Shown here piece after piece: positions 1-50,899 of a DNA stretch of 64,000 nt. The DNA lies in assembly GCA_021432655.1 (NCBI GenBank), contig MU271183.1, forward strand, positions 194,926 to 258,925. The letters are read 5' to 3'. This stretch comes from Atractiella rhizophila (Eukaryota). Under the pieces are notes generated by a model. It saw nothing but the letters and a program-made list of their open reading frames with translations. It made no database searches and was not told the origin of the DNA. The number at the start of each line of letters is the position of its first letter. The first letter of the stretch is position 1. Position numbers and translations under genes: made by a program.

Positions 1-82
1 TCCACGCTTTGCTGATGCTGAACAGTAGATTCAACTCATGTCATAACCGCTAATATCAAACAAAAGAAGCATTCCCACCACG

Positions 83-3000: not shown

Positions 3001-3098
3001 TCCAGTAGGCAAGTGTTTCCTGTGCTTGATTGAATCTATTTAACCATTTAGTAGTTCTCCGTAAAGTGCAGATCAACTTTGGCACCTCGTATACGTGA
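83..3098 (+). CDS. GPI13: GPI ethanolamine phosphate transferase 3 (PIG-O family)
   Basis: 986-aa ORF with IIDALRDDF, ADPPTTTLQRIKGLTTGSLPTFID, HALGVDHAGH, GDHGMDGKGDHGG, TGHQATLSSIQW and RRHLMVWKIFAPRF motifs plus many TM segments. Probable terminal GC-AG intron 3009-3054 gives ...VVLRKVQINFGTSYT* (TGA 3096-3098). Confidence 0.95.
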
Positions 3099-19400: not shown

Positions 19401-22400
19401 CTTCCTCCGTCGTGCTAGCGTTCAAGGAGGACCTAGTGAACTTCATCGAAGTGGAAAAGGCAGAACGAGGTGGTGACGGCAGGTTGTTCAGGCGGCCGTG
19501 GCTCGATGAAGGGGCATCAAAGAATGGGGTGGGAGGTTCCGTGGGGATGATGGGCATTCGGTCTGGGTCTATTACATCCAGCTCATCCGAACTGAGATCC
19601 TCTCGAATCTCAATTACTGGGCTTGGAGGCGAACCGTGGATTGGGCTGAGCTGTGTGCTCGTCCTCTTCCCCCCATGGCCTCCGCCTCCATCTTGAAGAT
19701 ACAGGCTGTTCCACCGACTTTGTCCTGGCGTATAAGGAGCGGAATCGTCAAAGTAACTGGGGATGGTAGGCAAGCCTCCATACATTGAAGGTTGAGAATA
19801 CACGCTCCCCGTCGTCGCACTGAGAATACTTGCCCTACCTCCAAGGTCGTCACCAACGTCAATCCCCAGACCAATGTTACGTTGGATGTGTTCGTCTTGA
19901 ACCTCGAGGAAGAGGGCCACTCGTCGATTTCTCTCGTCCGCCATGTCTCGCGCCAAGTTTCGGGCACCTACCCCCGTCCTCCCCTTGACCGAGCGCTGTC
20001 TCACAGTTCCCACATCAGTATCCACCTCCTTCTCCTTCTCACTCTCTGGGGGTGATTCTTCCTTTTCCTTTCGCTTCAATGTTGATGCCTCTGCCGTCGT
20101 TGGCGAGTTCGGTTCTTGTTGCTGTATTGCTAGTAGTGTAGTAGTAGTAGGAGGAGAGGAGAGGACGAGCGGCGGCGGCGGGGATTTGGCGGATGTGGAC
20201 TCGTTCCTCTTCGGGACATTCTGATTATGATGGTTGTAAGAAGATGCATCGGAAGTCCTCCTCTCCCGTCCTTTCGACGATAGGATGGAGTTCGAGGCGG
20301 AAGACTCGGTCGTAGATGACGTTATTACACTCGTGGCTGTTGAAGGTCTACGCGGGGATCTAGGAGGATGTGGGATCGGATGACCTTTAGAAGAAGGAAG
20401 GGGTGAGTTTGGATGCTCTAGTAGAGGTTTGGATGGAAGAGTAGGTAAGTGTCGGACTGGTTCGAACCAGAGTTGGAGGATGCTTCATGCAACGAATGAG
20501 CGGCAATATCAGTTCTTTTCGCTTTCTCATCAACGAAAATCAACAACACGAAACTCGGCAAACTCGATTCCAGATTCTAAATCAAAGCTGAAGAGCTCAC
20601 TTTCTCTCTCCACGATCAGCGTGCCATTGAAAGATTTACTGAGCTTCAACAACTTTCTGAAGGTTAAACCGGACGCGGAGCGTGCCTGCTTAATCCAATG
20701 GCTCTCCTCTGCTCTCCTGTCGAACATCCCTACAGCGAAGAATGTTCTTTTCGAAACTGAAGCCAATAAAGTAATGCTCAACCGAGAGATGGAGATTGGC
20801 CGGAAGAATGAAGCAGACAAAAGCCACGCTTCTCGATCCTCGGTGCTTCCAAAAGCACTGTCATCCTCGGATGAAAGGCAAAATCGAAGACCGGGTTCAA
20901 AACCCCACAACTCTCAGTCGAGGAACTTGGACGCGTCCCTGCAATTCCAATTCCATGGATCATAAAGCAGCAGCGAGCGAGGTCGCTGACACCTCCATTT
21001 CTCTTCCCCGCCCAACTCACGCGAAAGGAAGAGACACATCCACCAAATAATGCAAATCCAAACCTTATCAATTGAGTGTGAAGATCGACTACCCACCTTC
21101 ACTGTCCCTCCTCCACCCTGCCCCTCCAGCGGCGCTTCCCAACGTGACCGAGAGCTTGCTTGCGTTCGCACCACCACCCATGCTCACGTTCACAGAAGGA
21201 GCCACAGTATCGAACGACTTCCTCCTCTTCTCGTCCCTAACACCTCTCCTCGTCTCTTCCTTTTTCAACACCTCCTCCATGTCCCCAACGACCATCTGTC
21301 CGGCCAACATCCCTTGCTGCCATCCTCCCACGTTCCCATCCTCCTCTGGAAACGCGAGCGCGGCGGATATCTTGGAGAAGAACCGTTTGGCTCCGAATCC
21401 GGACGGGCGTGAGGGTCGCTTGCTGTGTTGGGATTGAGAGGACGAGGATGTGTTGGTCGCGCTGTTGGCCATCGGTGCGGAGGCAGGGATGGTGATTGGT
21501 GCGGTGGCGTTAGAGACGAATGGTGTGATACGGCCAGAGAGGGTGCCCATCGAATCCCTCCTTCCTCCTTCTGATCCTTTCAGGCTCCCACTTCCACTTC
21601 CACTTCCGCTACCGCTGCCGCTCCAACTTCCACTTCGATCCAACCCACCATTCGCATTTCCACTTCCGCTCGCTTTCACAGTCACATTGCTTCCCGAACT
21701 TGCCTCGCTGATCCTCGGTCTGTGCTCAGCTCCTTGGATCTTCACCATTCTTGCCGAACTAGCAGCGCCAGCACCAGCAGTCGCACCAATAACAGGGACC
21801 GGAGGAGGTCTGACCAAACCCTGACTAGTATTCGGCGGTCTCCTCAACCCTCCCTTTTGCATACTCGCCAACCTCGCACTCGGACTCCTTCCCACACCTC
21901 CACCTCCACTCTCAAAGCTACCAAACAGACCCAAGTCCCTAAACGCATCTTCCAACCTCACATTCTCCTCTTCCTCATCCACCTCATCGACCCTTCCCGC
22001 TCGAGACCCTCTCCTCCTCCTCCTCTTCGGAGGAGCCGCGGCTGTGGGAACACTTTTTCCCTTGGAGAAAGAACCCGGGATATCGTCTAGGTCCGAATCA
22101 GAACCTGATCCAGATCCAGAATGACCGCTGCGACTTCCACCGTCTTCGGACTGTTCGATGTCCAGAAACGACGCGTCGGACTTCGCCGAGAGAGGTAGAC
22201 CTCCGGGCAACATTCTCTCCCTCTCCCTCTCCCTCTCCCTCTCCTTTTCTTTCAATTTCCCAACCGTATTCGGTTTCGAAACGGAAGAAGAAATAGAAAC
22301 GGCCTGTCCCGATCCTATCCCGGTTGGAGAAACAGCCCGAAAGCGCCCCTGACTAGCGAACGTCGTAGAACTCGGTGCCGTCCCCGGTCTCCTAGGTACC

Positions 22401-25647: not shown

Positions 25648-26080
25648 TGTTAGGGCAAACACTATGTGCGGTCGCCGACAGGCGATGCGTCTGTAGTGGA
25701 GATAAACCTAAGAGCATGATATGACATGAAGACTAACCTGTAGTGGAGATAAACCTAACAGAATACTCTAAGGTCACCTCCACTACTCTCCGATCTATAT
25801 ATACAAGCGGAATAACACTGCCACAAAGTGTAGAGCAGAGCAGATGAAACATGTAAGAGAACAAAAAGGGGAAGTGACAGTGGGATTACACGGAGTTAAT
25901 AAGAGGAGGATAGGCACAATTGGGCTAAGTGGTGATGTAGGTGCAAATGGACGACAGGAGATGCAGTGGTGACGGGAGACGCAGTGGCGAACAGGCGCCG
26001 ATTCGCAGGGAACGCAAATGGGCGATAGGAGACGCAATCCGGCGAACGAGCGCCGATTTGCGTAAGATGCAAACCTGACA
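25648..26080 (-). mobile_element. Solo LTR, family A (TGTCAGG...CCTAACA), inserted in copia pol
   Basis: 433 bp, TG..CA, perfect 5-bp TSD GCGAG on both sides. Contains TATATA and a duplicated TTAGGTTTATCTCCACTACAG. Confidence 0.93.
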
Positions 26081-28570
26081 GCGAGCCACAGTGTCGGAGA
26101 GAGATGAGTCTCCGAAATACTTTTCTCTGTTCTCTCTCTGAGCTTCTGCAGGAGAACGACGAGCTCGCTAAGAGCGTTCGCGGGGCGGAGATGGGTCAGG
26201 TTTCACCTTCGACGGCACTTCAGTGGGTCTCGCCCCCTCTTTCTGTTCCTCTCCCTTTTCTACCATGTCTGACGTCTCTTCAGGAGGATCCAGCACTTCG
26301 TTAGTTTGGACTTCGAGAGATTGAAGGAGGGTCGGATGGTGAGTTTCGTCGAATTGGACATGGAGGTGTTTGGTGACTGACCCGTTTTTAGGGTTGTAGA
26401 TCCGATAAGTCTTGCTCTCCCAATCATAACCGACCAGTCTCCCTTCCCACGAACGTGCATCCAGCTTCTGTCTGTTTGGCTCAGGAGGAACCAGGCCGTA
26501 AGTTCGACATCCCAGCACGGGCAAGTGCTCCACTGACAGCTTCTTTCCAGTCCAAGCCTCGAACGGCGTCTTGCCTTTGAGTGCGACGGTTGGACGGCGA
26601 TTTAGGAGGTGAATTGCGGCGACAACAAGTTCTCCCCACGGCTTCTTGGGGAGATCGGAAGTGTGGAGGGTAGAACGGATGAGGGAAGCGATGGAAAGGT
26701 TGAGATGCTCCGCGACGCTATTCTATTGCGGAGTGTAGGAGGCAGTGTGCTCGTGCTTGATGCCATGAGACTTCAGGTACATCTTGAACTCGTTGCTGGT
26801 GTACTCCCCGCCATTATCTGACCTTATTGCTTTGATCTTTAAGCCGGTCTCGAGCTCGACTTTGGCTTTGAACTCCTTAAAGGTGGAGAAGACATCGGAT
26901 TTTCGCTTTAGAAGGTAATCCACTTTCTTCGAGTCGCATCATCTGTGAAGCTCACCCAGTATTCAGCTCCACTGATCGACTTCACAGGCGCAGGACCCCA
27001 CACGTCAGTGTGAACGAGTTCGAGCTTCTCACTCGCACGTTTCAAAGGTCCACAAGGGAACGGGAGCTTGGATTGACGACCAAGGAGACATCCGGCACAA
27101 GGTGCGTGATGATCCTCCTCTCCCACTTCCATCCCTCTAACCATTTCTTTCTTCTGCAGCTCCTCAAGTCCATCCATTCCAAGATGACCGAGCCTGCAGT
27201 GCCAGATGTGAGCAGACGGGGTTTTCGTGGCAGTGGTGAGTTTCGCATTCGCTTCGCTTGCTTCCAGGAACAGCACTGACGCATCAAGCTTGCGCAGGCC
27301 TCCTTCCGCACTAATTTCTGCCACTACCGTTACATCTCGCTTCACAATCCTCCCACGTCTGTCCGTGGAGAAGACGACGTCGAAACCACACGAGTTGAGC
27401 TTATCGGTGGAGAGGAGAGCACAATCAATTTCGGGTCAAAGAGAACATCGGTGAGTTCAATTTTTCTTTCCACTCCATTCAGTTTTGTCAAGACTCTGAC
27501 TGTTCCAATGCCAGGGGCCCTTGTGATGATTTCGTGGGACGAGCAGATGCGACAAGCGTGCGGAGAAAGCGATGAGAACCAGGAACGGAATGGGACGATG
27601 TGGTCTGTTGCCGCAGAATCGACATAGATCCCCTCGCGGTGAGTTCCATCTCCAGCGACCGTGTGGAAAGCCTCTGAGATCTTTGCTTCCCCAGGTTTTT
27701 CTCCTTCCTCCCGCTTCTTCTTTCGGCAATCGCTCTCCCAATGACCTTCGATACCACAAAAGTGGCATTTGCCCTTTTTCTTCTCGCTTTTCGACCTCCC
27801 TCCACCACTACTTCCACCTCCCGACTTGGTATAGTTCCTTCCTCCTCCCCCAGACCTTGTAACTAACGCTTCGCTAGGTTTTGAGTCTGGATTCCTTCGA
27901 TCGGCTTCGAGCAGGAGACGGGAAGCGATGTAGGAGGATGTGAAATCAGAGGAGGAGACGGCGTTGAACCAGGAGACGAGTTCGATCCAGGACGGGGGTA
28001 GGGAGATCAACAGTAGCATCGCGACATCCTCGTCATCCGTCTTGTCACCCATCACCTTCAACTCTTGCCCCATGGTGTGAATCCGATTGACATGATCTTG
28101 CATCGACTCACCCTCGACGTAACGCGCGGTGTAGAGCTTCTGACAGAGGAGAATACGAGCCTGGCGGTCCTGGGTTTGGTAGAGCTCCTTGAGCCTATCC
28201 CAAACCTCCTTCGGCTTCTCGACATCGATGCCCCGGATATTGGTGAGTACGTGGTCTTTGCAGGCTTCGATAATGATCGAATAGACTAGGTTCGCCCGTC
28301 TCGTCCAGTCCTTCTGCAACACCTCGACCTTCGCGACTTCCTCCGGCTTCCCAGCCTCTCCACCAACGGCAACAGGTTTGACATCCGTCCCAGCAACGAT
28401 CCCCGAGCATTTCTTGCCGAGCAGCTTCGCCTGGACACGGAAGTACCAGATGTGGTAGTTCTCCCATCCCTCGAGTTTTGGGATAGTCGAAGAAGTAAGT
28501 ACGGTAGTGTCATGATTTTCAGACATTTGAGGCTGACGAGGTGGCAGGGACTTCGGCTAGATGAGAACGA

Positions 28571-30664: not shown

Positions 30665-31035
30665 TGTTAGGGCAAACACTATGTGCGGTCACCGACAGGC
30701 GATGCGTCTGTAGTGGAGATAAACCTAAGAGCATGATATGACATGAAGACTAACCTGTAGTGGAGATAAACCTAACAGAATACTCTAAGGTCACCTTCAC
30801 TACTCTCCGATCTATATATACAAGTGGAATAACACTGCCACAGAGTGTAGAGGAGAGCAGATGAAACATGTAAGAGAACTAAAAGGGGAAGTGACAGTGG
30901 GATTACACGGACTACACGGAGTTAATAAAAGGAGGATAGGCACAATTGGGCTAAGTGGTGATGTAGGTGCAAATGGGCGACAGGAGACGCAATCCAGTGA
31001 ACAGGCACCAATTTGCGTAAGATGCAAACCTGACA
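30665..31035 (-). mobile_element. Solo LTR family A (internal deletion)
   Basis: Near-identical to 25648-26080. Flanks are AGTAGTAA and TCACT and do not match each other (see inversion finding). Confidence 0.9.
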
Positions 31036-32044: not shown

Positions 32045-32405
32045 ATCTAGGTCATGCAACCTAATTTCCTACTTCACATTTTCGCACTCTTACCAACCAC
32101 CGCTTTACGTTGTTGCATACAGGTCACCGCTCAGCATTTTGCCGGTCTGCACTGACACCATTTCATCTTGACATCCTTTCACATTGCTCTACTTATTTTA
32201 TCCTATTTCCAGTTATTCCCTTTATTGCTTTTCCGATTTACTTATTCGACATGTTTCATGGGCCATACTTTATAGTTCATGGTGGTGCCCTTACACATGT
32301 ATATAAATCGAGATGTCGTGGTGATGATCTTAGAGTATTCTCTTAGGTTTATCTCCACTACAGATATTGCCGATCAGCGAACTTTATATAATGTCTGCCC
32401 TAATA
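32045..32405 (+). mobile_element. Diverged LTR (family B, related to A) upstream of gypsy remnant
   Basis: Contains acatgtatataaatcgag, cttagagtattctcttaggtttatctccactacag and a ...gccctaata end resembling family A. Left boundary approximate. Confidence 0.55.
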
Positions 32406-34350
32406 GAAGAATACTCTCCCTCCACCCTCTCTCTCTTCTTCAAAACCAAAGTTAGAAAAAATGTTGAAGGTTTGGGGAGACATGAAAATGCACAATTCAC
32501 TACCAACAGAAAAACGTATCTATCGCTCAGAAAGGATGTTCCAACTCTATACCTCACAACTGAAAAGCAGTTCAGAAAACTTGAACAAGACCTCATGTCA
32601 AGTTTCAACCAGTAAAATGCACATACTTCCCAGAATGTAATCGAAATTGTGCAACTGAGATCCGACCTCCAAAATACAAACGACTTTACAATTACTAGAT
32701 TCCAGACTAACTCTTCCTAAAGACAGTGGAACCACCTCCACCTTTTTATCTCGAACAGACCCAACACCTCAAGCATACTCCTCTCCTTCTATATATCGAT
32801 CTGCAGTTTCACTATATGCAGGTATTAAACTTGTTTCACAATCTCCAAAGGAGTGCCCAACACAGCTCCAACCTTTTTACACGAAATTTACGGCTACACT
32901 TCTACTGTCCCAGGATAATTCCCCTCAGAAACATTAAAAATTCTAATTACCCTCTCTTATATGAAAGATGGAGATGCTGAAAAATCCGCCGCTAGGATTT
33001 TGTGCTGACTTGTTGAAAATGAGGAATAAATTCGTGCAGCAATTTTTGTCGGAGTTCAGATCGCGATTCTGCGCATCCGATCACTAACCCATCAGTGATG
33101 GCTGGACCCCAAAACATGTTTTCTATGAAGAAAAACAGCTTGAAAATAACAAAACACAAGGAGAACAGACCACCTGTATTGTATCGACTGAGTACTAATC
33201 CCTCACTGAGCACCACCCCCCATACTCACAATGCAAAAGAGCCCCCGAGGACATGGAGGTCGATGTGACACAATCTAGACCCCTCGTTGTCAACGATGCC
33301 AAAGAATAGGACACAGGGAAAGGAATGTAGGACGTCCATGAACAAAGAATACGACACTGGGAAAGCGAATATAGGACATCCATGAACAAAGAACAGCACC
33401 TCTGAGCACAGTGTGAATATTTCAGTTCCAAGTTTGCGCAACAAGACTGTCAAGCGACCCAGATCATTGAACTTCTGACGATAATGGTTGTTCCCCAATT
33501 GATAAGTCTAGATGAGGATTTTTAAAGCGGCGATGGGTGGAAGAAGTGTCCCCATTGCCGACCTGCAATTCTATTTCATCACCTAAAACCACTTCCAACA
33601 AAGCACCACTTTGACTTTGTGCAGATTTCCCTCCTCCCGAATTCGACTCCCCCTTTCCAAAGATGAAAAAATACACCTTTGTTCCACCACTACATCTCTC
33701 GTCAGCTTGAAAACGAAACTCAGAACTACATTCCATCATCCATATTCCCAATTGCCGACAAGCCACATCGGTGCTTGTTGACAGTGGGGCAACCATTTCC
33801 TTCATTTCCCCAAAACTCGTTTCTGCATACAACCTACCCATCACTCAACTTCCTTCCCCAGTAGCCAATTACAATATCGACGTATCTCTCAATCAGGGGG
33901 TCCCATCCATTCTGTTGCTTATTTACCCATTTTGATCGCTGCTTATCGCAAAGTTTGGCAATTCGCAGTGGCGGAGTTGGGGATGGTTGACATGATCCTA
34001 GGTCATGATTGGCTGAGACACTACAACCCAGAGATTAACTGGGCTTTAGGGAAAGTAGAGTTCTCTCACTGCCCCACCCTTACAATGCGGTTGATGTGTC
34101 TACCCCATGCGAACAACTTCCATTGTCGTCTGCCTCAATACAAGCCACCATTACAAAATCGTAGAAACTGGCACAATACGTGGCGGCGACGAGACCAAAA
34201 AGTGGTCGAAATACCAGTGCAAATTGGAATTTTGCAGACATCTTTGACGACGAAAAATTCAAAACGTTACTTCCACCACGATGACTGTGGGACCATGCCA
34301 TTAACCTTAAAACAGATGCTTGTTCTCTCAACAATGTTAAAGCCTGCAAA
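32406..34350 (+). mobile_element. Ty3/gypsy remnant (gag, aspartic protease, RT N-terminus), copy 1
   Basis: Gag-like KILITLSYMKDG, protease LVDSGATISFIS...DMILGHDWLRHYNPEINW, and FADIFDD..LPP..WDHAINLK. Many stops and frameshifts. Confidence 0.88.
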
Positions 34351-34684
34351 GGTGATAGATTGGCAACGGACACACATCCCATTGACCAGTTATACTGCAC
34401 GTTGTGTCTACAAGTGTGTGGCCTGAGCCTATTTAATGGTGAGCTCCAAAATAAGCTTGGGTAGCTAGTGGGAGGAACACCTGAGTGCCTTCCCCTAGAC
34501 AGAGGAGTGAGTCCTATATCAACCATTACAGCTAAGGCCCCTACTCACTACCATTCCTTATGCCACTGTGACACAATTTACACTCGTCACCGCCTGGCAT
34601 TTTGCCGCTAATACTGAGACCCAAACTGCATACATTTCAGAGTTCAAAATCACCAATCCGGGCAGACTACTCGCTATTACTACT

Positions 34685-35161
34685 TGTCAGGTTTGCATCT
34701 TACACAAGTCGGCGCCCATTCACCGGATTGCGTCTCCTATCACCCATTTGCGTCCCCGGCGAATCGGCGCCTTTTCGCCCGTTTGCATTCTATACAAATC
34801 TGCAAACCGTCGCCACTCTGCGTCTCCCGTCGCCACTCTGCCTTTTCCTTGTCGCCTATTTGCACGCAGTGCATCACCACTTAGCCCCTTCATGTGTATT
34901 CTCCTCTTGTTAACTCCGCGTAATCCCACTGTCACTTCCCCCTTTTAGTTATATTACATGTTTCATCTGCTCTTCTCTACACTCTGTGGCAGTGTTATTC
35001 CGCTTGTATATATATATCGGAGAGTAGTGGAGGTGACCTTGGAGTCTTCTCTTAGGTTTATCCCACTACAGGTTAGTCGTCATGTCATATCATGTACTTA
35101 GGTTTATCCCCACTACAGACGCATCACCCATCAACAACTGCACATAGTGTTTGCCCTAACA
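34685..35161 (+). mobile_element. Solo LTR family A
   Basis: TGTCAGG...CCTAACA. Flanks TTACTACT and AGTGA. Confidence 0.9.
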
Positions 35162-35738
35162 AGTGAGTACCACTTAGTTGCTGAAACCATCCCTTTGCCG
35201 GAAGGACCACCTCTTCATTGGTTGTTCGAGCATGGTCTTGCTGAAATGATACTGGCTTCACTGAATACGTAGGCAAGGTACCGAAACACAGAGCTCTGAA
35301 GGCTGAGGATCAAAGAGGAGCCTTTTGAAGTCCTACTTTGTGGGGACATTGTGGGCAGAGGTGCATGAAGGTGCCATAACCCTAAGCTGACCATTGACAT
35401 AATCTCGCCAATCAATCAACCACTATCTGCTCTATCCCATACATACCACATCAGCTCCCAATAGCTCTCAGTATTATGGAGAAGGTATCCTCCAGCATTT
35501 CAGGTAAATCAGCATCACAGAGAGGATCATCCTACTCATGAGACCACGGAACTGTCCCCAGCAATCTGGATACCTTCATCCTCATATCTCACCACTCGGT
35601 AAATCCTGTTCACCAGTCTGCACCATCACTATTTTCATCTTGGCAATCCTTTGATATTGTTCTACGTCTTATATCTTATCTCTAGTTATTTCCTTTGTTG
35701 CCTCCCCGATTTGGTTTATTCTATATGCTTCAAGATAC

Positions 35739-36316
35739 TATCAGGATTGCATCTTACGCAAATCGCTGCCCGTTCGCCGGATTGCATCTCCTAACGCCCA
35801 TTTGCGTTGCCTGCGAATTGGCGCCTGTCGCCACTCAGCGTCTCCCGTTGCCTGTTTGTACACAGTGCAAATTGGCATTCAGTCGCCTGTTCGCCCATTT
35901 GTGCCTATATCACCACTTAGCCCAATTGTGTCTATTCTCATCTTATTAACCCCGCATAATCCCACTGTCACTTTCCCATTTTAGTTCTCTTACATGTTTC
36001 ATCTGCTCTCCTCTACAATCTGTGGCAGTGTTATTCCGCTTGTATATAGATCGGAGAGTAGTGGAGGTGTGTCAGGATGGCTACAGACCAACAGCTAACC
36101 AACTGAACTAAAAGAGCTAACGATGGGTGTTTAAACCCATCTTGGTCTGTACTTAAGGTATATCAGGGGCTCGAACCCTGACAAGGTGACCTTAGTGTAT
36201 TCTCTTAGGTTTACCTCCACTACAGGTTAGCCTTCAGGTCATATCATGCTCTTAGGTTTATCTTCATTATAGACGTATTGCCCGTCAGCAGACTGCACAT
36301 AGTGTCTGCCCTAACA
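35739..36316 (+). mobile_element. Solo LTR family A with nested 114-bp element
   Basis: TATCAGG (mutated TG)...CCTAACA, 5-bp TSD GATAC. Inserted into a family B-like LTR. Confidence 0.9.
36070..36183. mobile_element. 114-bp mini solo-LTR/TRIM-like element
   Basis: TGTCAGG...CCTGACA 7-bp terminal inverted repeats and 5-bp TSD AGGTG. Absent from the duplicate site near 40067-40071. Confidence 0.9.
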
Positions 36317-36431
36317 GATACATGCTTTACAGTTCATGGCGGTGCCCTTACACATGTATATAAATTGAGATGTAATGGTGATGACCAGGCAATTGCCGAT
36401 CGGCGAACTTTATATAATGTCTGCCCTAATA

Positions 36432-38372
36432 GAAGAATACTCTCCCTCCACCCTCTCTCTCTTCTTCAAAACCAAAGTTAGAAAAAATGTTGGAGGTTTG
36501 GGGAGACATGAAAATGCACAATTCACTACCAACAGAAAAACGTATCTATCGCTCAGAAAGGATGTTCCAACTCTATACCTCACAACTGAAAAGCAGTTCA
36601 GAAAACTTGAACAAGACCTCATGTCAAGTTTCAACCAGTAAAATGCACATACTTCCCAGAATGTAATCGAAATTGTGCAACTGAGATCCGACCTCCAAAA
36701 TACAAACGACTTTACGATTGCTAGATTCCAGACTAACTCTTCCTAGAGACAGTGGAACCACCTCCACCTTTTTATCTCGAACAGACCCAACACCTCAAGC
36801 ATACTCCTCTCCTTCTATATATCGATCTGCAGTTTCACTATATGCAGGTATTAAACTTGTTTCACAATCTTCAAAGGAGTGCCCAACACAGCTCCGACCT
36901 TTTTACACGAAATTTACGGCTACACTTCTACTGTCCCAGGATAGTTCCCCTCAGAAACATTAAAAATTCTGATTACCCTCTCTTATATGAAAGATGGAGA
37001 TGCTGAAAAATCCGCCGCTAGGATTTTGTGCTGACTTGTTGAAAATGAGGAATAAATTCGTGCAGCAATTTTTGTCGGAGTTCAGATCGCGATTCTGCGC
37101 ATCCGATCACTAACCCATCAGTGATGGCTGGACCCCAAAACATGTTTTCTATGAAGAAAAACAGCTTGAAAATAACAAAACACAAGGAGAACAGACCACC
37201 TGTATTGTATCGACTGAGTACTAATCCCTCACTGAGCACCACCCCCCATACTCACAAAGCAAAAGAGCCCCCGAGGACATGGAGGTCGATGTGACACAAT
37301 CTAGACCCCTCGTTGTCAACGATGCCAAAGAATAGGACACAGGGAAAGGAATGTAGGACGTCCATGAACAAAGAATAGGACACTGGGAAAGCGAATATAG
37401 GACATCCATGAACAAAGAACAGCACCTCTGAGCACAGTGTGAATATTTCAGTTCCAAGTTTGCGCAACAAGACTGTCAAGCGACCCAGATCATTGAACTT
37501 CTGACGATAATGGTTGTTCCCCAATTGATAAGTCTAGATGAGGATTTTTAAAGCGGCGATGGGTGGAAGAAGTGTCCCCATTGCCGACCTGCAATTCTAT
37601 TTCATCACCTAAAACCACTTCTAACAAAGCACCACTTTGTGCAGATTTCCCACCTCCCGAATTCGACTCCCCCTTTCCAAAGATGAAAAAATACACCTTT
37701 GTTCCACCACTACATCTCTCGTCAGCTTGAAAACGAAACTCAGAACTACATTCCATCATCCATATTCCCAATTGCCGACAAGCCACATCGGTGCTTGTTG
37801 ACAGTGGGGCAACCATTTCCTTCATTTCCCCAAAACTCGTTTCTGCATACAACCTACCCATCACTCAACTTCCTTCCCCAGTAGCCAATTACAATATCGA
37901 CGGATCTCTCAATCAGGGGGGTTCCATCCATTCTGTTGCTTATTTACCCATTTTGATCGCTGCTCATCACAAAGTTTGGCAATTCGCAGTGGCGGAGTTG
38001 GGGACGGTTGACATGATCCGAGGTCATGATTGGCTGAGACACCACAACCCAGAAATTAACTGGGCTTTAGGGAAAGTAGAGTTCTCTCACTGCCCCACCC
38101 TTACAATGCGGTTGATGTGTCTACCCCATGCGAACAACTTCCATCGTCGTCTGCCTCAATACAAGCCACCATTACAAAATCGTAGAAACTGGCACAATAC
38201 GTGGCGGCGATGAGACGAAAAAGTGGTCGAAATACCGGTGCAAATTGGAATTTTGCAGACATCTTTGATGACGAAAAATTCAAAACGTTACTTCCTCCAC
38301 GATGACTGTGGGACCATGCCATTAACCTTAAAACAGATGCTTGTTCTCTCAACAATGTTAAAGCCTGCAAAG
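36432..38372 (+). mobile_element. Ty3/gypsy remnant, copy 2 (tandem duplicate)
   Basis: Near-identical to 32406-34350 at an offset of ~4020-4026. The protease ORF 37791-38213 is still open. Confidence 0.88.
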
Positions 38373-38705
38373 GTGACAGATTGGCAACGGACACACATCC
38401 CATTGACCAGTTATACTGCACGTTGTGTCTACAAGTGTGTGGCCTGAGCCTATTTAGTGGTGAGCTCCAAAATAAGCTTGGGTAGCTAGTGGGAGGAACA
38501 CCTGAGTGCCTTCCCCTAGACAGAGGAGTGAGTCCTATATCAACCATTACAGCTAAGGCCCCTACTCACTACCATTCCTTATGCCACTGTGACACAATTT
38601 ACACTCGTCACCGCCTGGCATTTTGCCGCTAATACTGAGACCCAAACTGCATACATTTCAGAGTTCAAAATCACCAATCCGGGCAGACTACTCGCTATTA
38701 CTACT

Positions 38706-39163
38706 TGTCAGGTTTGCATCTTACACAAGTCGGCGCCCATTCGCCGGATTGCGTCTCCTATCACCCATTTGCGTCCCCGGCGAATCGGCGCCTTTTCGCC
38801 CGTTTGCATTCTATACAAATCTGCGAACCGTCGCCACTCTGCGTTCTCCTGTCGCCTATTTGCACGCAGTGCATCACCACTTAGCCCCTTCATGTGTATT
38901 CTCCTCTTGTTAACTCCGCGTAATCCCACTGTCACTTCCCCCTTTTAGTTGTATTACATGTTTCATCTGCTCTTCTCTACACTCTGTGGCAGTGCTATTC
39001 CACTTGTATATATATATCGGAGAGTAGTGGAGGTGACCTTAAGAGTCTTCTCTTAGGTTTATCCCCACTACCGGTTAGTCGTTATGTCATATCATGCTCT
39101 TAGGTTTATCTCCACTACAGACGCATCGCCCATCGGCGACCACACATAGTGTTTGCCCTAACA
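38706..39163 (+). mobile_element. Solo LTR family A (duplicate of 34685-35161)
   Basis: Same termini and same flanks (CTACT / AGTGA). Confidence 0.9.
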
Positions 39164-39740
39164 AGTGAGTACCACTTAGTTGCTGAAACCATCCCTTTGC
39201 CGGAAGGACCACCTCTTCATTGGTTGTTCAAGCATGGTCTTGCTGAAATGATACTGGCTTCACTGAATACGTAGGCAAGGTACCGAAACACAGAGCTCTG
39301 AAGGCTGAGGATCAAAGAGGAGCCTTTTGAAGTGCTACTTTGTGGGGACATTGTGGGCAGAGGTGCATGGAGGCGCCATAACCCTAAGCTGACCATTGAC
39401 ATAATCTCGCCAATCAATCAACCACTTTCTGCTCTATCCCATACATACCACATCAGCTCCCGATAGCTCTCAGTATTATGGAGAAGGTGTCCTCCAGCAT
39501 TTCAGGTAAATCAGCATCATGGAGAGGATCATCCTACTCATGAGACCACGGAACTGTCCCCAGCAATCTGGATGCCTTCATCCTCATATCTCACCACTCG
39601 GTAAATCCTGTTCACCAGTCTGCACCATCACTATTTTCATCTTGGCAATCCTTTGATATTGTTCTACGTCTTATATCTTATCTCTAGTTATTTCCTTTGT
39701 TGCCTCCCCGATTTGGTTTATTCTATATGCTTCAAGATAC

Positions 39741-40199
39741 TATCAGGATTGCATCTTACGCAAATCGCTGCCCGTTCGCCGGATTGCATCTCCTAACGCC
39801 CATTTGCGTTGCCTGCGAATTGGCGCCTGTCGCCACTCAGCGTCTCCCGTTGCCTGTTTGTACACAGTGCACATTGGCACTCAGTCGCCTGTTCACCCAT
39901 TTGTGCCTATATCACCACTTAGCCCAATTGTGTCTATTCTCCTCTTATTAACCCCGCATAATCCCACTGTCACTTTCCCATTTTAGTTCTCTTACATGTT
40001 TCATCTGCTCTCCTCTACACTCTGTGGCAGTGTTATTCCGCTTGTATATAGATCGGAGAGTAGTGGAGGTGACCTTAGTGTATTCTCTTAGGTTTACCTC
40101 CACTACAGATTAGCCTTCAGGTCATATCATGCTCTTAGGTTTATCTTCATTACAGACGCATCGCCCATCAGCGGACCGCGCATAGTGTCTGCCCTAACA
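39741..40199 (+). mobile_element. Solo LTR family A (duplicate of 35739-36316, without the mini element)
   Basis: TSD GATAC on both sides. Confidence 0.9.
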
Positions 40200-40296
40200 G
40201 ATACATGCTTTATAGTTCATGGCGGTGCCCTTACACATGTATATAAATTGAGATGTAATGGTGATGACCAGGCATTGTACATGCCTAACAGACCAT

Positions 40297-42620
40297 CTAT
40301 TCCTTGATGAACCCCAGACGCCAGTCAAGATAACCCCAAAATTTGCTGTCTATATCTGGTGCATATCGGTAGTCATCTCCATCTCCACCCTCACAAACCC
40401 AGGACCCTAAGCAAAGGTCAAACTCGCTTCCTTCACACTCTCTTAACATGCTCATCGCCCTGCTCATCTCTCCATCCAGCCATGCTCCAAAAAATAGGAG
40501 AACCCTTAAGTGCTTACCTGGGTCCCTAACCCCTCTGTTCCCAAAGAACCAGCAAATGAAATCTAAGAATATAAACCCTTCAAATTCAAACCAGTACACC
40601 ATACAGTACCGAACATTTATTGAGGAGATTGCATTTGCATTTCTGAGGGTATAGAAGAACCTTTGGGGAACAATGTTGGAAGTTTCCTCACCACCATCGA
40701 GGTCAAGGGACTTGAGATGTTTGAGGTATGATAAATCCAGCGGGGTGGTTAGAATGGATGTCTTCCCATCAGGCGAGTAGGACTTGAGCCAGATTGCAAG
40801 TTCTTGTAGGAGTGGTGGCAGACACGAGCCTGAGATGGAGGCAGGGAGGGGACACAGATTGGCAAGGTGCAGCCGTGTTAGGGTTGGTGCAAGGGAGAGG
40901 GATGGGATAGGCGGATACCGATGAAGACATAGATGTTTCAGTTCCGAAGGTAATTCAAGGCCTGTTGATGTTGAAGAGCCAGAGTCTTCCACATTGTGAG
41001 CACGCAACTTTCTGATCCTGCCTCCTATCCTCCGCATAAAATTCTCGATCTCGTCATTCTTCCAACTCCTCCAACCTTGATCGCTAAAACCCACATCATC
41101 TAACCTTGTCAACCCTTCAATAGCATGTAACACAGTCTTTGCCTCCTCTTCATTCCAAAATGCACCTATACGAACTTCTTCAACATTAGGCGTGCCTGCA
41201 ATGATGTCTTTTGCCATCTCAACTCGATTCCTATCGTCAAGCTTCGTACCAGACATAAACGAGAGGGTTCTCCAGAAACGTCCAGCATGGGGATACAGTT
41301 TCAAACGAGCATACAGCTCCTGCACAGGAACATCTTGACGCCAATAAGGGATTGAAACAGTCTTCCAGAGCTGACAGACATCAGAGACTCGCTGGAAGGA
41401 AAGGTCATATTGATCATCTTCAAGATCTTCAATGTATTTTCCGAAAGAAAGGAATATGAAGACGAGAGAGAGTATCTCAGTAGGCAGCTGTGCAATAGTG
41501 CATGGACTAATCCCTGGAGTTCGAGTTGGGGACATGGAGAGTTGGATGATGTAGCCCTCACTGGTGGATGGGATGGCTGATGATTCCGATGCACTGACAG
41601 GAACGAAATTCCCACTAGAGAGGAGTGCAATGAGGTCAAAAATGACCTGAGAGCGATCATCTGGAAGATGGATCATGGATGTGAAGCACCTCATTTGCAC
41701 CTTGTCTGAATCCACAAATGTATGATGTTTCCTGTCCACAAAAGTTACTGTAATACTTTTCTCCTCCAATGTGATGCCAAAGTTCACTACACCATCAGAA
41801 TCAACTGCACTTTCAAGACATTCAAGTGAGAAGTTTGATGATTTCGACGGCCCATATTCCCATGACAGAAACTCAACAGGGAAGACAAAGGTGATCCGGA
41901 GCATGCGAATCAATGGAGGTAGCCGAGAAACGAAAGAGGGAAGAATGGAGATATGCATCGGAGTGTGTTCATCAAGGTGATTTATTGTGTACCAGGGGGC
42001 GATGAGATGAGCCAGTGCGGTTGACTCTGTTCCCTGACCATCCTTGCATGGAATCGACGTTTCCATTTCAATCAAACCTAACGCTCGTTCTATTTGGCTT
42101 TGAGGTTGAACCCTAACATTCACGCAATTTAAAATTGGCAAATGTTAATCAGCAAGAATACACACATATTATTTTCCATGCCAGCCAGCGAATGGTTCCT
42201 GTTGGATAACAACTGACTTGAATAGGGTGGAAGAGTGTAAGGGTGTTGGAGGATCTTGTTGCCTCCCGTTCCCAACAACGCATCATGTTGCGGAGACTCG
42301 TGTCCGAGGGGGGTAACGATGAATGTATCGTCATCAGAAACTGGATGGGGTCCACTGCTATGAAAGATAGCGCCAAAAAGGTTTTGACCACCGTGTCCGA
42401 CAGCAGGAGCATGACCTAGACCTTCTGCACAATATGATCCTCCTTTCTGCACTTCGAGTTGTCTTGTAAGGTCCTCGATGCGTGCTTCATATCTGCTCTC
42501 TTTGTCAGCCTCACTCTTCAAACATACATGGGACTTGCTTGCTGACCATCCGCTGATGCTCATTCTTTATATCCACCAAAGCTTGTCGAATGGCACAGAG
42601 CTGTTGAATCTGCTTGAAGG
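40297..42620 (-). CDS. F-box/LRR-like protein with an upstream Tup1-N-terminal-like coiled-coil exon; 5' end degenerate
   Basis: F-box-like IAQLPTEILSLVFIFL...VSDVCQLWKTVS followed by LxxLxL repeats (LKHLCL, LTRLHL, LQELAI, LKSLDL). Upstream exons join in frame through a GC-AG intron 42538-42493 and a GT-AG intron near 42166-42113. No intact first exon found. Confidence 0.7.
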
Positions 42621-43454
42621 CTGTTATAGGCACCGTTAGCAAACAGAACAAATGCAATTTATTCTTGTGACAAAGGTGTCATCTTTGACAATCGATTGAT
42701 CGAAGAACAAAGACGACAGAATCAAGGTTAACTATTTGCGGCTGCTGCGATATCTGACAATCATTACATCCCTTCGATGTGAGGAGGAAACAAAGGGGTT
42801 GTGATCCTCGAAAATTACGAGGTCAAACAGTTCTGTGAGTCTTTCGGGATATCCCACACATTATTCGGGCACGGGATGACTGTTCCATGTCCGCAGTCCC
42901 ACATCATTTCCTCATTCGCTCACCGTTCTCATTCAACTCCTCTCTCTCATGTCTCATGGCCAATAATTCACTCTCCAAAACCTCCGAGTCAAAAGCCACC
43001 ATATCTATGACTGCGGTCAGAGGTGTCGGTTTTCCGGACAGTCGTGAGGTGTACATCATGAGAAGGAAGGGCAGTCGTTTTAATCGCTTTGGATAAGGGA
43101 TAATTCCTTCAAAGCAATCAATTATAAAGGTTGCGGGTGAGGGCTGCTCCCATGATGTGATTGATCACATGGGGAAGGTTTGCGTCTGCTTGCTTGAAAA
43201 GGTTACGACTGGTTGAACAGTTTTTAACCGAACATCGCCGAATTGCAAGTGGCGAAGAAGAAGTGGATTTGAGAGGTGGAAACCACTTGCGCAAATCTAG
43301 GGCTTTTATGGCAAAGAAAGTATTATGGATCTCGTAGCATAGTCAGAACTTCTAACGCAATATTTTCTTTTGATTACCCGATTCTCCTCGCTCCTAGCCC
43401 AAGTCGCGGTAAACGTACTCGTAGGTATACAACTGGGTATCACATTGCGACATT

Positions 43455-46020
43455 TGGCGGAGGAGGACATCGTCTCTTCCCGTCATGGAAAGGCAAGATA
43501 GATAGAAACTTCGCCCCTAGGAGACAGAGACTCCATAGATTCCCACATTGAGGCGGAAAGTGGATATTTTCTTTCTGCTAACATACTACAACATACCAAA
43601 GTCACAATTCTAATTTCTAATCTAGACAAAAGGGTGCGACTGGAATGAGGAAGTTCAGTCCATATCAAGAGTGAATTTGTCATGGCGTACTGTCTCCTGG
43701 ATATGACAGCTGACAAGGGAAGAAAAGAAGGGATGTGTCCCTCTGTCCTCGTTTGACGATGTTGGATAACCCTAAAGGAAAGGAAGGGCAACAAGACTCC
43801 GGCTTCCAGGGACAATCATTGTCCAAGCATATCTCGATGCATCCATTCTGACTGCTACTCTGGCAAAGCATACCGAGAACGTTGGCCAATGCTGATGCAC
43901 TCTCGGACAATGTGTAGTAAATAATGCCCTGGGTCCAAACACGATGAAGCTATATGCAACGAGATCAAATTAAGTAGAGCTATAATGGGGGGACTTTTCA
44001 AAGCAAAGCAAAGGTTTTAAGGAAAGCGGGATCATACAAAAAGTTTGCAAACAGAGACAAATTGCAAAAACAAATGCGCGGTGAATAGGAATAGCAATAA
44101 AGTGTTCAGTCAGAAGTGTCAATTTTAAACCGGACAAACCAAGTCATGGGAGGTAACTGTTGCTGCAGTATCACGTAACAAACAACAGTCTTTTGGAAAG
44201 TTGATTGTGGTGGCAGAAGAACGGAAGGAAGGAGACTGGTGAGCGGGCTAGGTGCTATAGCCCATATGAACGTAATACAGGACTATGAGTTGGAGGTTGT
44301 GAAGATGACGGATGGACTGGTACAGAATGAAATTAATAAACAAGGCGTGCTCTCAACCAAACCGATCCTTGGTGCTCCTCAGTTCTGATGCTGACGGCAT
44401 TGATCGATCTATTGTGCCTTTTGAACAGCGTAAGCTGCGCAGGCTTTTTGGGTCATCTCGTTCCTCTCGTTAGCGCTTGTAACATCCTGGGCAACGAGAC
44501 AGCATAGACTTAGTCTGTTTCTCCCTGCTTCTGCACTGAGGAGCGACGTACTCGGTATCGTCTGGTCCTCTCATATCCACACTCATCCTCCTCCCTCTCT
44601 GGTAACTCCCCCACCCGCTCATTCCACTCATCCCAGTAATACTAGGGAGCCTCGGCCTCCCCATCCCCGTCCCAGTCGATGGCCTTTGTATCCCGATGCC
44701 CAAGTTTCCCATTTCCCGATCAACGTCCATCATATCGTCCGGTTGGTAGTGAGAGTGATTGTATTCGCTGCTCGTTCTCGACGAGGGAGAGGGGCTGGAG
44801 GAGCGTCCCCAGGAAGAGCCGGAGGAGGAGACGGGGGAAGCGGACCGGAGGGGTTGGGATTGGGTAGGTTGCGGAGAGGGGGCCCTCATGCCGAACATTC
44901 CTCTGGCTTGCTGAGGCTGCTGCTGCGTTTGAGGCCCTGGACTTGGTGCTCTTCTACCGAAGAGGCCCCCTGATGATGGAGGCGGAGCCGGTGGCCGTGT
45001 GGCTTGAGGCGGGGGAGTCGAGGCTCTCATTCCACCGAAGAGTCCGCGAGAGGGTTGAGTTTGGGGTTGTGTAGGAGGACGTGTCCGCATGGGAGGAAGT
45101 TGAGCGTTTGCGATGTTCGTCGAAGCAGAGGGGGTTCTCCCGAATAAGGTCGGACGAGGTTGCTGTTGGGCTTGGGATTGGGAGTAAGAAGGGGAGGGAG
45201 CAGCTTGAGCGTGCGCAGGAAAAGTCGCAGTTGAAGGACGGGGTGGGGGGATGGCTGCACGTACAGACGGGGGGTTCGGGGGACTCTTACTACTACTACT
45301 GGTGGAACTCCTGCCAAACAATCCGCCTGTCCCGCTTCGGTTCCTCGACGAGTTGTTGGCGTACATTTTAAATGGCACGATGACAGATTTGAGCGCTGGA
45401 TCGTTACTAACTCGTGGAAGGGTACGATACTCCCGATTATAATATGCGACGAGGTGCCAGCGCTCGACTGTCCCGTTCGATACCTGTCGATTGATACAGA
45501 TGGAGGCTCTGGTGAGAGGAAGCACGCCCGTTGGATAGTCGCGTTCGGTATAAGTGAGAAAGACGCCGGACATCCTGGACTGCCCGCACTGATGTTATCG
45601 ATCGATCAAGGAATAATAACAACTGGTTAGTTCATTTTCTCTGACGCAGTTCGAGAAGGAATTTGCACCTTCAGGTGATCAGTCCATCGCATCATCCCGC
45701 TTTTACCTTCCTCAAACACAAAGACGGCGCCATGCTGGATTAGCTCTTCCCTCTCCTGCTCGTCTAACCTTCTAGGCATGTCAACGAGCTTCCCAACAAC
45801 ACACGCGTGTACGATCTTTTCCACGTCGGTGATGTCTGCTACGTATCCATACCACGTAGCTTGCAACGACATATTACTTAGTGAGCCTGCGTTGGTTCGT
45901 CGTGGGAGGGTGGTAGGTTCGTTTCTGTAGACTTTGTTCGCTGTGAGAGGGCATCAAGCGACCTGCTCTTCATATATTGGTCGGATAGTGATAAACAAGG
46001 TTGGAGAAGATGAGCAATTT
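43455..46020 (-). repeat. Left arm of inverted duplication (WOPR gene, ~150 bp promoter, ~1 kb downstream)
   Basis: Reverse complement matches 54240-56990, for example atatccactttccgcctcaatgtgggaatctatg. Confidence 0.9.
44453..45872 (-). CDS. Gti1/Pac2 family (WOPR) transcription factor, copy 1 (full length)
   Basis: LQATWYGYV..D..KIVHAC..G.L..MPRRL...ER..LI.HGAVFVFEE.KSGMMRWTD, intron, CGQSRMSGVFLTYTE...LTRASI...WHLVAYY. Pro/Gln/Ser-rich tail. Last exon MLQALTRGTR*. Confidence 0.92.
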
Positions 46021-49000
46021 GTTGCTGAAAGAAAGTTGGGGATGATTGAGGGACCAAACGACGCCGAAACCCAATCAACGGGAGTGTAACAAGAAGACTG
46101 ACAAGAAGATATGCACACCAGGAGAAAAGAAAGATGAAGAGTCTCCACAACTATCTCGATGTTGACCGATACGAGGAATCACCAACTCTTTAGCGCTTCT
46201 ATGTAGAAGGTCGAATCGAAGGAGGAGAGACCTAACCTGCTCCAAGAACTCAGGGACACCAAAGAAGCCGCAGCGAAATTTAGGCGCCTCTGCATCTGAG
46301 ATTTGAGCTCCTCCAGCTTAAATTTGTGAGGCTTAGAAAACGTACCATACGATCCTGACTCTCGGTTCTGAAGACAAAATGGTTCCTCGCTCGACGAACT
46401 TATTGAGGAGACCACCGTACATCGCCTGAAGCCAACACCGAGCTCGAAGTTTTGAAGCGTGCCGAAATGTGTGAGCAATTCTGCACCGAGCGCGTAGGTC
46501 CAGATGTTGAGGAAGGAGAGCTCCCTAGTTGCTGCGAAGGAGGCATTCGCAACTTTTAACGCAAAACTAGACGGAAGTGAACCTTGCGCCCAAATTTAGA
46601 ATGGGATGACCGATGGAAGGGAGTCTATGCACCTGAAGTAGGATAACGTGCGCTGTGTCTGTAGAGGATACGCTATAGTCCTCTCAATCTCCATCGTCCA
46701 AAAAATGAGAGAAAGCACCGTACGACTTGTTGAATCTCACATCCCTTCGGAATGATAGGGCATGTCTCGTCCAATCCGTAAAATGCAGAAGGGACGGTAT
46801 GCCACGTACTGAGGTTCCCTCACTTCTTGAAATGTTCCGCGTACTCGTTGTTGCAGGATTTCCACTCGGTGTCGCCTTTCCTCCCTTCCCGGCACGCGAA
46901 CGAGAACCGGTCAGCCCATCGACTAGCTCAATCGACTCGGCCGGGATGATCACCAATCGCCAATCCGTGCAATCTGAGAAGCTGGTTTGGGAATATTTGC
47001 CAGAGATGGAACAAGATAATTGCTTCTTCTGAGTGAATGAGCCACAGAGCTGGAGTAATCGCATGCCGCAATACGTCATACTGGGCTTTGCAGTGGTCTC
47101 ACCAACTTGAACCTTCCAAGGCCAACGCGCAAAGGATTTCTACTCAATGGGGAATAAAAAGGACTTGCAATCGAGAAGCCGAATCACGAAAATCGTCGCC
47201 TTCTTCCTTTCTCTTGGCTGTCTCACTTCAGACTTCTGCGGTTGCTTGGGATACGAGTTGGGTATGGCAAGGGTATGGACTTGCTTCCACTGGTATCTTC
47301 CTGCCTTGGATCCTCCTGCCTTGGGTCCTCAACTCCAAACACCCGTATTTCCCCCAACGATAGAAAAAAATGGCATCAAGCCTTGAAGTTAGCAAATACC
47401 AAATTAATTGGAACTACTGGCAACATGTTCAAAATTGTGCTCCTTCCAAACAATTCTCGTTCGTTACAAGAAAACTGCAAGGATGAATACTGCTACTGGA
47501 AATGGGTATAAGGCTCAAGGGAACTGAACTTCTACGACAAATCAGGAATTGGTATCTCTCATAGATTTGTGTGGAACCTCATTCGTATCAAGAGCAAAGA
47601 TTTATTAATAAGAGAACCAAGAATACTTCTTTTCTCAGCCGGAGTGTAGGCGAGGAGCAAGGTTTGAGAGGATATGGAAGGGGTATGTGAAAAAACTGAA
47701 AGTGAAAGGATGCTAGAATTCCATCGTCTGAATTCCGCATCCCATTATGATTGCTATGCTGGCGACCCAGGAGACGAACATTTCAATCACTCGCATTCAC
47801 GAGCATCCTAGCCTGCTGAGGAGACCCCCTTCACTTGTGTCACCTTCGGTCAGAGGCGATGTGCTCCGTCCTCGGAGAGGGAGATGGTGAAAAGCATGAA
47901 GAAGGGCCGCTCAGATGAAGTTACTCCCCGTCACGATCTATCCTCTCCATAGGCATTGGATATTGAATATTGAATGAGGTAGTGATCCTCGAGCAACCTC
48001 GAGCATGGTTCTCTCCCCGGACTTCGAAGTTGTCAATGAAATAAGCAGGGAAGCTTCCGAGAAACGGATGGCGCCGATAAGATCCTCCATAATGAAAACG
48101 GTTCTCTAGGATACGAGACACAACACATACTATGTGTTACGCAGAACTTTAATACATCCAGATCGTTAACACCATGCATCAAAGTCATTCAAATTCTCAT
48201 CAATCCCCTAGATATTCTGAATTCAGAATCTCCTACTAGTAAAGCATATGCAACCTTTGTCTCCCAACATGAAGATAATTTTAGCAGTATTCCCTTTTGA
48301 ATATCAATGAAAATATGCATTGCCTTATCAGGTGTTTTCCCGAGGGAATATTCGCTCTAATCGCGTTTTTTTTGCTCAAATTCAAGAGAAATGACAAAAT
48401 CAGCGTTTCTCGAAGTGACTTTCCCATCCATTCACGAATAACTGAAAGCCAGCTATGTTAAAATGCCAAACTCGAGTACCGCTAATTCGGATCCATTTGA
48501 AGTGTTATATCTCAAAGATATCCTCCGTTTCAAAAAATTTGTATGCCTATAGTCTACGCTTGTATTGAGGTTTTTCAGGGTGTTATTTCTCTGCCAGTGC
48601 GCTAAGTTTCAGTCGTCAGCGCATAAGCTTCAACGTCGAAACTTACGAAATTGATTCATACTCTAGTGTACTAATGCTCCTCCTTGCTTCCTAACTATTG
48701 TGTTCTTCCAGACGAGAGTATATCAGGCAATTTCAACCGCAGTTGCAACGGAAGAAGCAAAGGGCGCTTGTTAGTAACAGCCACAGATTGCGTTTCAAAC
48801 CACGCAAAACATATCGGAAACAAGGCTGAAACTCGTCCAGTCTATTTTTATGATTGAGAAGACGGGATCTCTTTTTGGAACAGGAACGTCTTGGAAATCG
48901 GAAACCGGTTTCAGTCCTTCCCCGCTTGACTGTCAAAATGCGAACATCTCAATCATTTGCATTCATGGGCATCCTGGCCTGCCGAGGAGAGCCCCTTCAC

Positions 49001-50213: not shown

Positions 50214-50899
50214 ATGTCTTTGCAACCTACTTGGTACGGTTACGTAGCTGACATCACCGACGTGGAGAAGATCGTTCACGCTTGTGTTGTAGGGTTACTA
50301 GTTGACATGCCCAGAAGGTTAGATGAGCAGGAGAGGGAAGAGCTAATCCAGGACGGCAGCGTCTTCGTCTTTGAGGAAGGCAAAAGCGGGATGATGCGAT
50401 GGGAAGATCATTTGAAGGTGCATATTCCTTCTCGAACTGTATCAGAGAAAATTAAGAACTAACTGGTTGTCATTATTCCTTAATCGATCAACAACATCAG
50501 TACAAGCAGTCCAGAATGTCCGGCGTCTTTCTCACTTATACTGAACGCGGCTACCCAATCGACGCGCTTCCTCTTACCAGAGCCTCCATCTGTATCAACA
50601 GACAGGTATCGAACTCGACAGTCGAGCGCTGGCACCTCGTCGCATATTACAATCGGGAGTATCGTACACTTCCACGAGTTAGTAATGATCTAATCAATTT
50701 CCACTCGCTGTCGCGTTTCCTCCCTTCCCGGCAGCGACAAGAGGGAAGAATTGAGCGCCATTCCCCGCGTAGGCTGGCGCCGTTGCGATGGCCAAAGGCT
50801 CTGCACCAGTCGCGGTGGGACCTGGGTACCCGACTTGGCTTTCGTCGGGAAAGAGGTCAGGGGATGCTGATGCTAGTTATTTTCATTGGCGGCGGTTAG
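50214..50899 (+). CDS. WOPR copy 2: DNA-binding domain only, homology ends at 50690, unrelated Arg-rich tail (truncated paralog or pseudogene)
   Basis: Exon 1 50214-50417, intron 50418-50500, exon 2 homologous up to RVSND. RWED replaces RWTD. Frame is open to TAG at 50899. Confidence 0.8.

Follow-up and report, generated by a model that had tools for sequence, protein, structure and literature searches.

A gene of Atractiella rhizophila that joins a Tup1-type N-terminal coiled coil to an F-box/leucine-rich-repeat protein

The corepressor Tup1's N-terminal domain is described as an antiparallel four-helix bundle (PMC5650148). The first 72 residues of Tup1 are reported to account for both Ssn6 binding and tetramerisation; when an N-terminal fragment was overexpressed, it acted as a dominant negative on one gene and repressed three others (PMC5679332). 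For the two Tup1 paralogues of Coprinopsis, two-hybrid data are reported in which the N-termini bind each other and Cyc8 (PMC5200907). A connection of this corepressor with ubiquitin ligases has been described in Aspergillus, where Fbx15 binds SsnF/Ssn6 and links SCF to SsnF; in that account the stability of SsnF was unchanged by the binding (PMC5029927). The literature searched, largely that outside subscription journals, contained no Tup_N domain wired to an F-box or F-box/LRR protein, and the papers on A. rhizophila found there are ecological or taxonomic by title.

The window analyzed here, a stretch of 64,000 nt from this root fungus, contains a gene in which both parts are combined. Judged from its sequence, what is new about this chimera is the arrangement of known domains, seen in one copy and in one species.

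Gene structure and transcript evidence

The gene lies on the minus strand and comprises four exons (43059-42924, 42620-42539, 42492-42166 and 42112-40297) that join to 2361 nt or 786 codons, the sole stop being the terminal one. Its features are listed below, where P0099 (KAH8919881.1) is a protein of 281 aa from the same species.

42924..43059, minus strand: exon 1, with the ATG at 43059 and the first half of the Tup_N coiled coil (joint in run X2; 20 of 33 residues identical to P0099)
42621..42923, minus strand: intron 1, GT-AG, 303 nt, enclosing what the earlier note on this DNA took for a broken exon (X2 contig)
42539..42620, minus strand: exon 2, middle of Tup_N (Pfam Tup_N E 0.011; 19 of 26 residues identical to P0099; spliced)
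42493..42538, minus strand: intron 2, GC-AG, 46 nt (X2 joint 42492/42539)
42166..42492, minus strand: exon 3, in which Tup_N ends (at about 42453), followed by homology to the Tup1 linker (until about 42285) and then a stretch weakly resembling the leader of the F-box family
42113..42165, minus strand: intron 3, GT-AG, 53 nt, across which the Tup1-derived exon continues in frame into the F-box exon (X2 joint)
40297..42112, minus strand: exon 4, a member of the Atractiella F-box/LRR family, stop at 40297 (39 paralogues at 37-58% identity; open frame)
41497..42066, minus strand: family-specific N-terminal region of about 190 aa, preceding the F-box (pLDDT mostly under 60)
41353..41496, minus strand: F-box motif containing a variable insert; the positions of L-P-x-E-I-L and V-C-x-x-W are retained (Pfam and alignment)
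40432..41289, minus strand: leucine-rich-repeat solenoid (pLDDT of the block mostly 85-97)
42807..42848, minus strand: intronic Tup_N look-alike frame, PERLTELFDLVIFE (12-mer scoring of 422 window tiles)

Contigs of two public runs, X1 and X2, were compared with positions 39800-46300 of the window. The runs are not on record as RNA, and X2 was taken as cDNA from its spliced contigs. A 584-nt contig of X2 (record 10, depth 30.8) contains all three joints, 42620/42924, 42492/42539 and 42112/42167, and the removal of three canonical introns in one contig indicates cDNA, unless it reflects a processed DNA copy. It differs from the window by five letters in two listed pieces and by one more at the third joint, and the frame is kept. 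The third joint is flanked by 145 and 326 nt. The short side of the first measures 30 nt, one under the bridging bar, but record 11 of X2 has its end at 42924 too, and the resemblance of exon 1 to Tup1 is independent evidence. The 584-nt contig stops at 41968, leaving the remainder of exon 4 unbridged. X2 has zero cover at 40234-40450, and X1 covers the chimera in pieces only; neither is counted as evidence here.

These joints confirm an exon at 42620-42539, a 46-nt GC-AG intron (42538-42493), an exon at 42492-42166 and an in-frame splice through an intron at 42165-42113 into the F-box reading frame ending at 40297. The earlier note had read the first of these exons, the GC-AG intron and the in-frame splice from the letters alone. 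Splicing of the upstream exons to the F-box exon, which the note had left to RNA junctions, is seen in the X2 contig with every joint. The proposed combination of Tup_N and F-box is real and spliced; the accompanying view that this copy is broken does not hold on this evidence, as the contig splices past the supposed damage. The true exon 1 (43059-42924) is open and resembles P0099, and 42924 is spliced straight to 42620. This places the PERLTELFDLVIFE frame, together with its TGA and the GT-to-AT donor supposed near 42661, inside intron 1. The gene begins at 43059, beyond the interval 40297..42860 first assigned to it. Intact relatives had been thought possible elsewhere; this copy is itself intact, and the searches made found no relative.

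The intronic frame scores 22 against a 12-mer of yeast Tup1, a value reached by 7 of 422 same-sized window tiles. Against the native Tup1 12-mer it scores only 15, as high as which are 73 of the 422 tiles, and exon 1 tops the list with 36. The resemblance at 42807-42848 is thus most likely due to chance, and on these tile scores a dead alternative exon was rejected.

Two further contigs touch the same region. An unspliced 702-nt contig of X2 (42924-43617) spans exon 1 and 558 nt upstream with 12 ATGs; either a long leader or transcription running on from the same-strand WOPR gene could account for it. A contig of X1 at 42184-42329 is about 93% like the linker of exon 3, the X1 pieces of exon 4 being more than 99% alike, and may derive from a divergent allele or a second linker copy.

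The chimera is a single intact gene, apparently transcribed and spliced, and we hold this structure with high confidence. The contrary reading is that assembly fused two overlapping transcripts, a short RNA from a TUP1 fragment and an F-box RNA whose start lies within exon 3, or that the locus is a transcribed relic in the course of being lost. It draws on the facts that an assembled contig cannot prove a single RNA molecule, that all joints come from one run, and that exon 1 has the short-sided joint and most of exon 4 lies past the contig end. However, both halves share one frame with no intervening stop, and the contig runs unbroken through exon 3 and the joints on either side of it; the open frame of 786 codons also speaks against a relic. 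We regard this reading as improbable.

Origin of the two parts

Residues 1-146 of the chimera align with residues 36-184 of P0099 at 58% identity over 152 columns (E 6e-48). P0099 itself matches Tup_N at E 2e-15 (57.3 bits, cut-off 28.7) and aligns weakly with yeast Tup1 (3VP8) over the full domain (E 0.11). The N-terminus is therefore Tup_N, as the earlier note had suspected, and not a generic coiled coil. The single exons all stay under the Tup_N cut-off (exon 2 alone gives a weak match, E 0.011, 16.5 bits against 28.7), and membership in PF08581 follows by transitivity through P0099. A search of longer proteins with exon 3 gave one match among 84 candidates, which was P0099. Exon 2 had no match among PDB sequences, and the Tup_N query returned nothing at 0.9 or above in the Atlas.

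The start of the chimera aligns with Met36 of P0099, so the first 35 native residues are missing; upstream of the ATG no clear remnant of them was found (best local score 35, across a stop). Within the Tup_N core 51 of 74 residues are identical to P0099, and the three indels between the two proteins are all in frame. The native nuclear signal at 235 is not included, and a simple pattern search, which does not decide nuclear location, found no classical basic nuclear signal in the chimera. Exons 3 and 4 have no WD40 match in Pfam, and the structural model shows an LRR solenoid instead of a propeller.

The 58% match to the native protein points to a partial, intron-bearing duplication of the fungus's own TUP1 as the source of the N-terminus, and the introns in this part argue for duplication at the DNA level over a retrocopy. 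A second contig, present in X1 and X2, has a joint at 42495/42543, nearly the same place as intron 2; by-eye translation of its two loose X1 ends gives P0099 peptides, and the contig is therefore taken as the native TUP1 transcript. P0099 was the sole Tup_N protein found for the species, and it has no WD40 repeats and an odd tail. It is probably a truncated gene model of canonical TUP1, or the native gene may be split or shortened in this fungus. When P0099 was searched against longer proteins none of 257 candidates passed, which is weak evidence against a full-length Tup1 or another fusion among the proteins searched.

The large reading frame of exon 4 has 39 relatives, all from A. rhizophila (P0001-P0039), with 37-58% identity and the same domain order (E 7.5e-217 to 2.7e-77, 68-94% query coverage). 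The product of the chimera is not among these matches. A quick tree of 34 rows, from which the 11 most distant rows of the 45-row alignment were omitted, places the chimera body as sister to a clade of 16 paralogues, with a best identity of 59% and an end branch of 0.62 against a median of 0.35. By these distances the F-box/LRR body is an old family member and not a fresh copy. At columns conserved among close paralogues (16 compared) it departs at 28 of 183, the most of the 17 proteins; at columns of the wider family it departs at 9 of 114, within the range of 2-22%. The departures are partly explained by tree position and may also reflect relaxed selection on the F-box body.

An AlphaFold2 model on the 45-row alignment reached a mean pLDDT of 69 and a pTM of 0.64. 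The region of about 190 aa in front of the F-box is kept across the family, with no Pfam match and no usable Atlas match. The F-box-like profile of Pfam gives E 0.15 in the chimera, below the cut-off, compared with values down to 4e-7 in the paralogues, 32 of 39 of which match at E 0.1 or better; the nearly invariant columns L, P, E, L, V, C and W of the motif are kept in the chimera, which identifies it as an F-box. The solenoid behind it has COI1, MAX2, FBXL2, TIR1 and FBXL17 as top Foldseek matches (E 1.6e-5 to 1.7e-3), consistent with LRRs following an F-box. The KKRK/KRRK leader motif found in 6 of 17 paralogues is absent from the chimera. About 24 C-terminal residues (40297-40370) extend past the point where most paralogues end.

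The fusion point probably falls in exon 3, and no informative repeats were found around it. None of the 39 F-box relatives has a Pfam Tup_N match, nor have the 35 scanned among 59 further relatives. Metagenome scans confirmed none of 121 pattern matches to P0099 and none of 204 to exon 3, and the protein and metagenome searches together gave no second Tup_N/F-box protein. In automated models the same F-box/LRR family is fused to RhoGAP (P0056), TPR arrays (P0057, P0064) and SH3 pairs (P0078), and two models (P0039, P0048) carry long unassigned N-termini. This suggests either frequent domain capture or fusion errors of the models.

The gene lies in a rearranged region. Three WOPR (Gti1/Pac2) copies are present at 45872 (minus strand) and at 50214 and 54408 (plus strand). 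An inverted duplication mirrors 43273-46009 at 57797-54261 and includes the outer two copies; its identity is 88% across 1.8 kb. The start of the chimera lies some 210 nt outside this duplication, and 23 nt separate its stop from a repeat unit that continues into LTR-like repeats and a 3.8-kb tandem duplication. The latter (32264-40071) has 96.6% identity and is accompanied by several LTR-like repeats of about 450 nt, also at 25648-26080 and 30665-31035. Remnants of copia-type gag, pre-integrase and SH3-like domains lie on the minus strand (26171-28556), a frame for a retroviral-type aspartyl protease on the plus strand (37731-38210), and ordinary neighbours are a GPI ethanolamine-phosphate transferase (47-3043) and a RhoGEF gene (17898-20484). 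The rearranged, repeat-rich setting suffices to explain why the chimera and WOPR genes are adjacent, and a functional tie between them is unsupported beyond proximity. In Candida, Wor1 is reported to co-purify with Tup1 only after cross-linking (PMC5786334), which gives no evidence for the Atractiella locus.

Signs of selection and possible function

Neutral decay was simulated from the chimera's own codons with 60% transitions and no indels. The 23 core residues that differ from P0099 require at least 29 base changes, and assigning 12-23 changes to the chimera corresponds to 0.08-0.17 substitutions per site. The 786 codons stayed open with P 0.0015, 0.0005 and 0/2000 at 0.08, 0.12 and 0.17 substitutions per site. 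With at most 3 of 2000 neutral runs remaining open (P at most 0.002), the gene as a whole has been maintained. Taken alone, the 146 Tup1-derived codons and their two introns survive neutrally in a fair share of runs (P 0.03-0.18). The native Tup_N core has 22 bulky hydrophobic positions, all of which are still hydrophobic in the chimera, 17 being identical (simulated P 0.036). The changes in the core are concentrated in its first half (17 of 37 against 6 of 37 in the last; Fisher P 0.011, simulated 0.005, with the split chosen post hoc), and they include an altered block of five residues within the N-terminal motif that native Tup1 has in common with its yeast counterpart. By these tests constraint on the Tup_N part itself appears only moderate.

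The origin and function of the chimera could be explained as follows. A DNA-level copy of TUP1's 5' part, two introns included, would have landed in frame upstream of an older F-box/LRR gene, and an SCF substrate receptor would in effect take the place of the Tup1 WD40 propeller. The retained coiled coil would co-assemble with native Tup1, bind Cyc8, or both, and the F-box is predicted to bind Skp1. An SCF ligase could thereby be placed on the Tup1-Cyc8 corepressor, or the WD40 arms could be diluted, and repression would be tuned as the complex or its partners become ubiquitylated or displaced. Given the literature on Tup1, Ssn6 and Fbx15, a Tup_N domain of 69% identity is probably still able to mix with native Tup1 where the two come together; that such mixing also brings the F-box to the corepressor is a tentative step. 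Co-assembly of the coiled coil with Tup1/Cyc8 and docking of an SCF receptor there is the leading mechanism, with a probability of roughly 0.35. We count in its favour the 786 open codons, the 58% identity to P0099, the kept hydrophobic core, the better-kept second half of that core, the in-frame indels and the F-box/LRR fold, and against it the single copy, the neutrally survivable Tup1 part, the motif changes, the absence of a nuclear signal, the divergent F-box body and the unchanged SsnF stability in Aspergillus. In a complex prediction the peptide of exon 1, only half of the domain, was combined with P0099 46-128 in triplicate; its score of 0.02 speaks neither for nor against assembly.

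Nearly as likely as corepressor docking, though doubtful in itself, is that the N-terminus is a passenger. An old F-box/LRR gene would have gained a promoter, a start codon and 5' exons from the TUP1 fragment, the frame being kept open for the F-box/LRR part in the family's ordinary job while the coiled coil drifts. The neutral survival of the Tup part alone favours this reading, 31% of the core is changed, fusion seems common in this family given the RhoGAP, TPR and SH3 models, and the Tup_N fusion was seen once. An in-frame Met late in exon 3, or another at 42066, could moreover start a family-like protein; the Met-42066 form is absent from the protein collection. What frame upkeep alone does not predict is that all 22 hydrophobics are kept and that the changes gather in one half, but these tests are modest and partly post hoc. 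The latter pattern also suits a rather unlikely third reading, in which Tup_N serves as a borrowed module that di- or tetramerises the F-box/LRR receptor, and the changed first half prevents mixing with native Tup1. A D-domain dimerises the F-box receptors Cdc4 and beta-TrCP. A preserved hydrophobic core behind a first half diverged at 17 of 37 positions would fit such a module, as would the lack of a nuclear signal. However, the second half shares 84% of its residues with native Tup1, no paralogue needs a module of this kind, and the diverged Tup1 paralogues of Coprinopsis are reported to associate with each other still (PMC5200907).

A stronger form of corepressor docking is a natural degrader or decoy subunit, which would enter the Tup1 tetramer by its duplicated Tup_N and carry an SCF receptor in place of a WD40 arm. 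We consider this unlikely. If true, ubiquitin could act directly on a global repressor of the fungus, and perhaps also on WOPR regulators in contact with Tup1-Cyc8. Should the chimera bind Tup1 or Cyc8, it would represent a natural off-switch for the repressor by ubiquitylation and a ready tool for studying how the composition of the Tup1 tetramer controls repression. Even with a passenger coiled coil it would be a clean case of a new gene, in which parts of a core regulator and of an expanding F-box family were joined and the donor survives for comparison. The weight of the case is limited by its being a single copy in one little-studied fungus.

Comparison with known systems

The chimera shares with the Tup1/RcoA/TupA corepressors (PF08581; yeast 3VP8 and 3VP9) a homologous N-terminal coiled coil and part of the linker. 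It differs from them in lacking the WD40 repeats, the native central acidic/basic region, the nuclear signal and the first 35 residues, and in carrying an F-box/LRR body instead. That body resembles, in its modelled fold, SCF receptors of the FBXL type (COI1, MAX2/D3, TIR1, FBXL2, FBXL17, Skp2 and yeast Dia2), in which an F-box is followed by an LRR solenoid. Unlike these receptors, to which it is 10-14% identical, the chimera has a family domain of 190 aa and Tup_N in front, and its Skp1 binding is only predicted. Within the Atractiella F-box/LRR expansion (P0001-P0039) it is the only member seen with Tup_N.

A functional parallel is Fbx15 of Aspergillus fumigatus, an F-box protein tied both to the Tup1-Ssn6 corepressor and to SCF (PMC5029927); for the chimera such a tie is a proposal. 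Fbx15 is a separate protein that binds SsnF and controls the nuclear localisation of SsnF, and the abstract describing it mentions no Tup_N (PMC5029927). In its evolution the chimera recalls the F-box A2 genes of Caenorhabditis, reported as an expanded F-box family with a captured foreign domain for which wider substrates were proposed (PMC12062965). The A2 capture is described as a transposase helix-turn-helix that spread in a subfamily (PMC12062965), whereas the domain captured in Atractiella, seen once, comes from a corepressor of the host itself.
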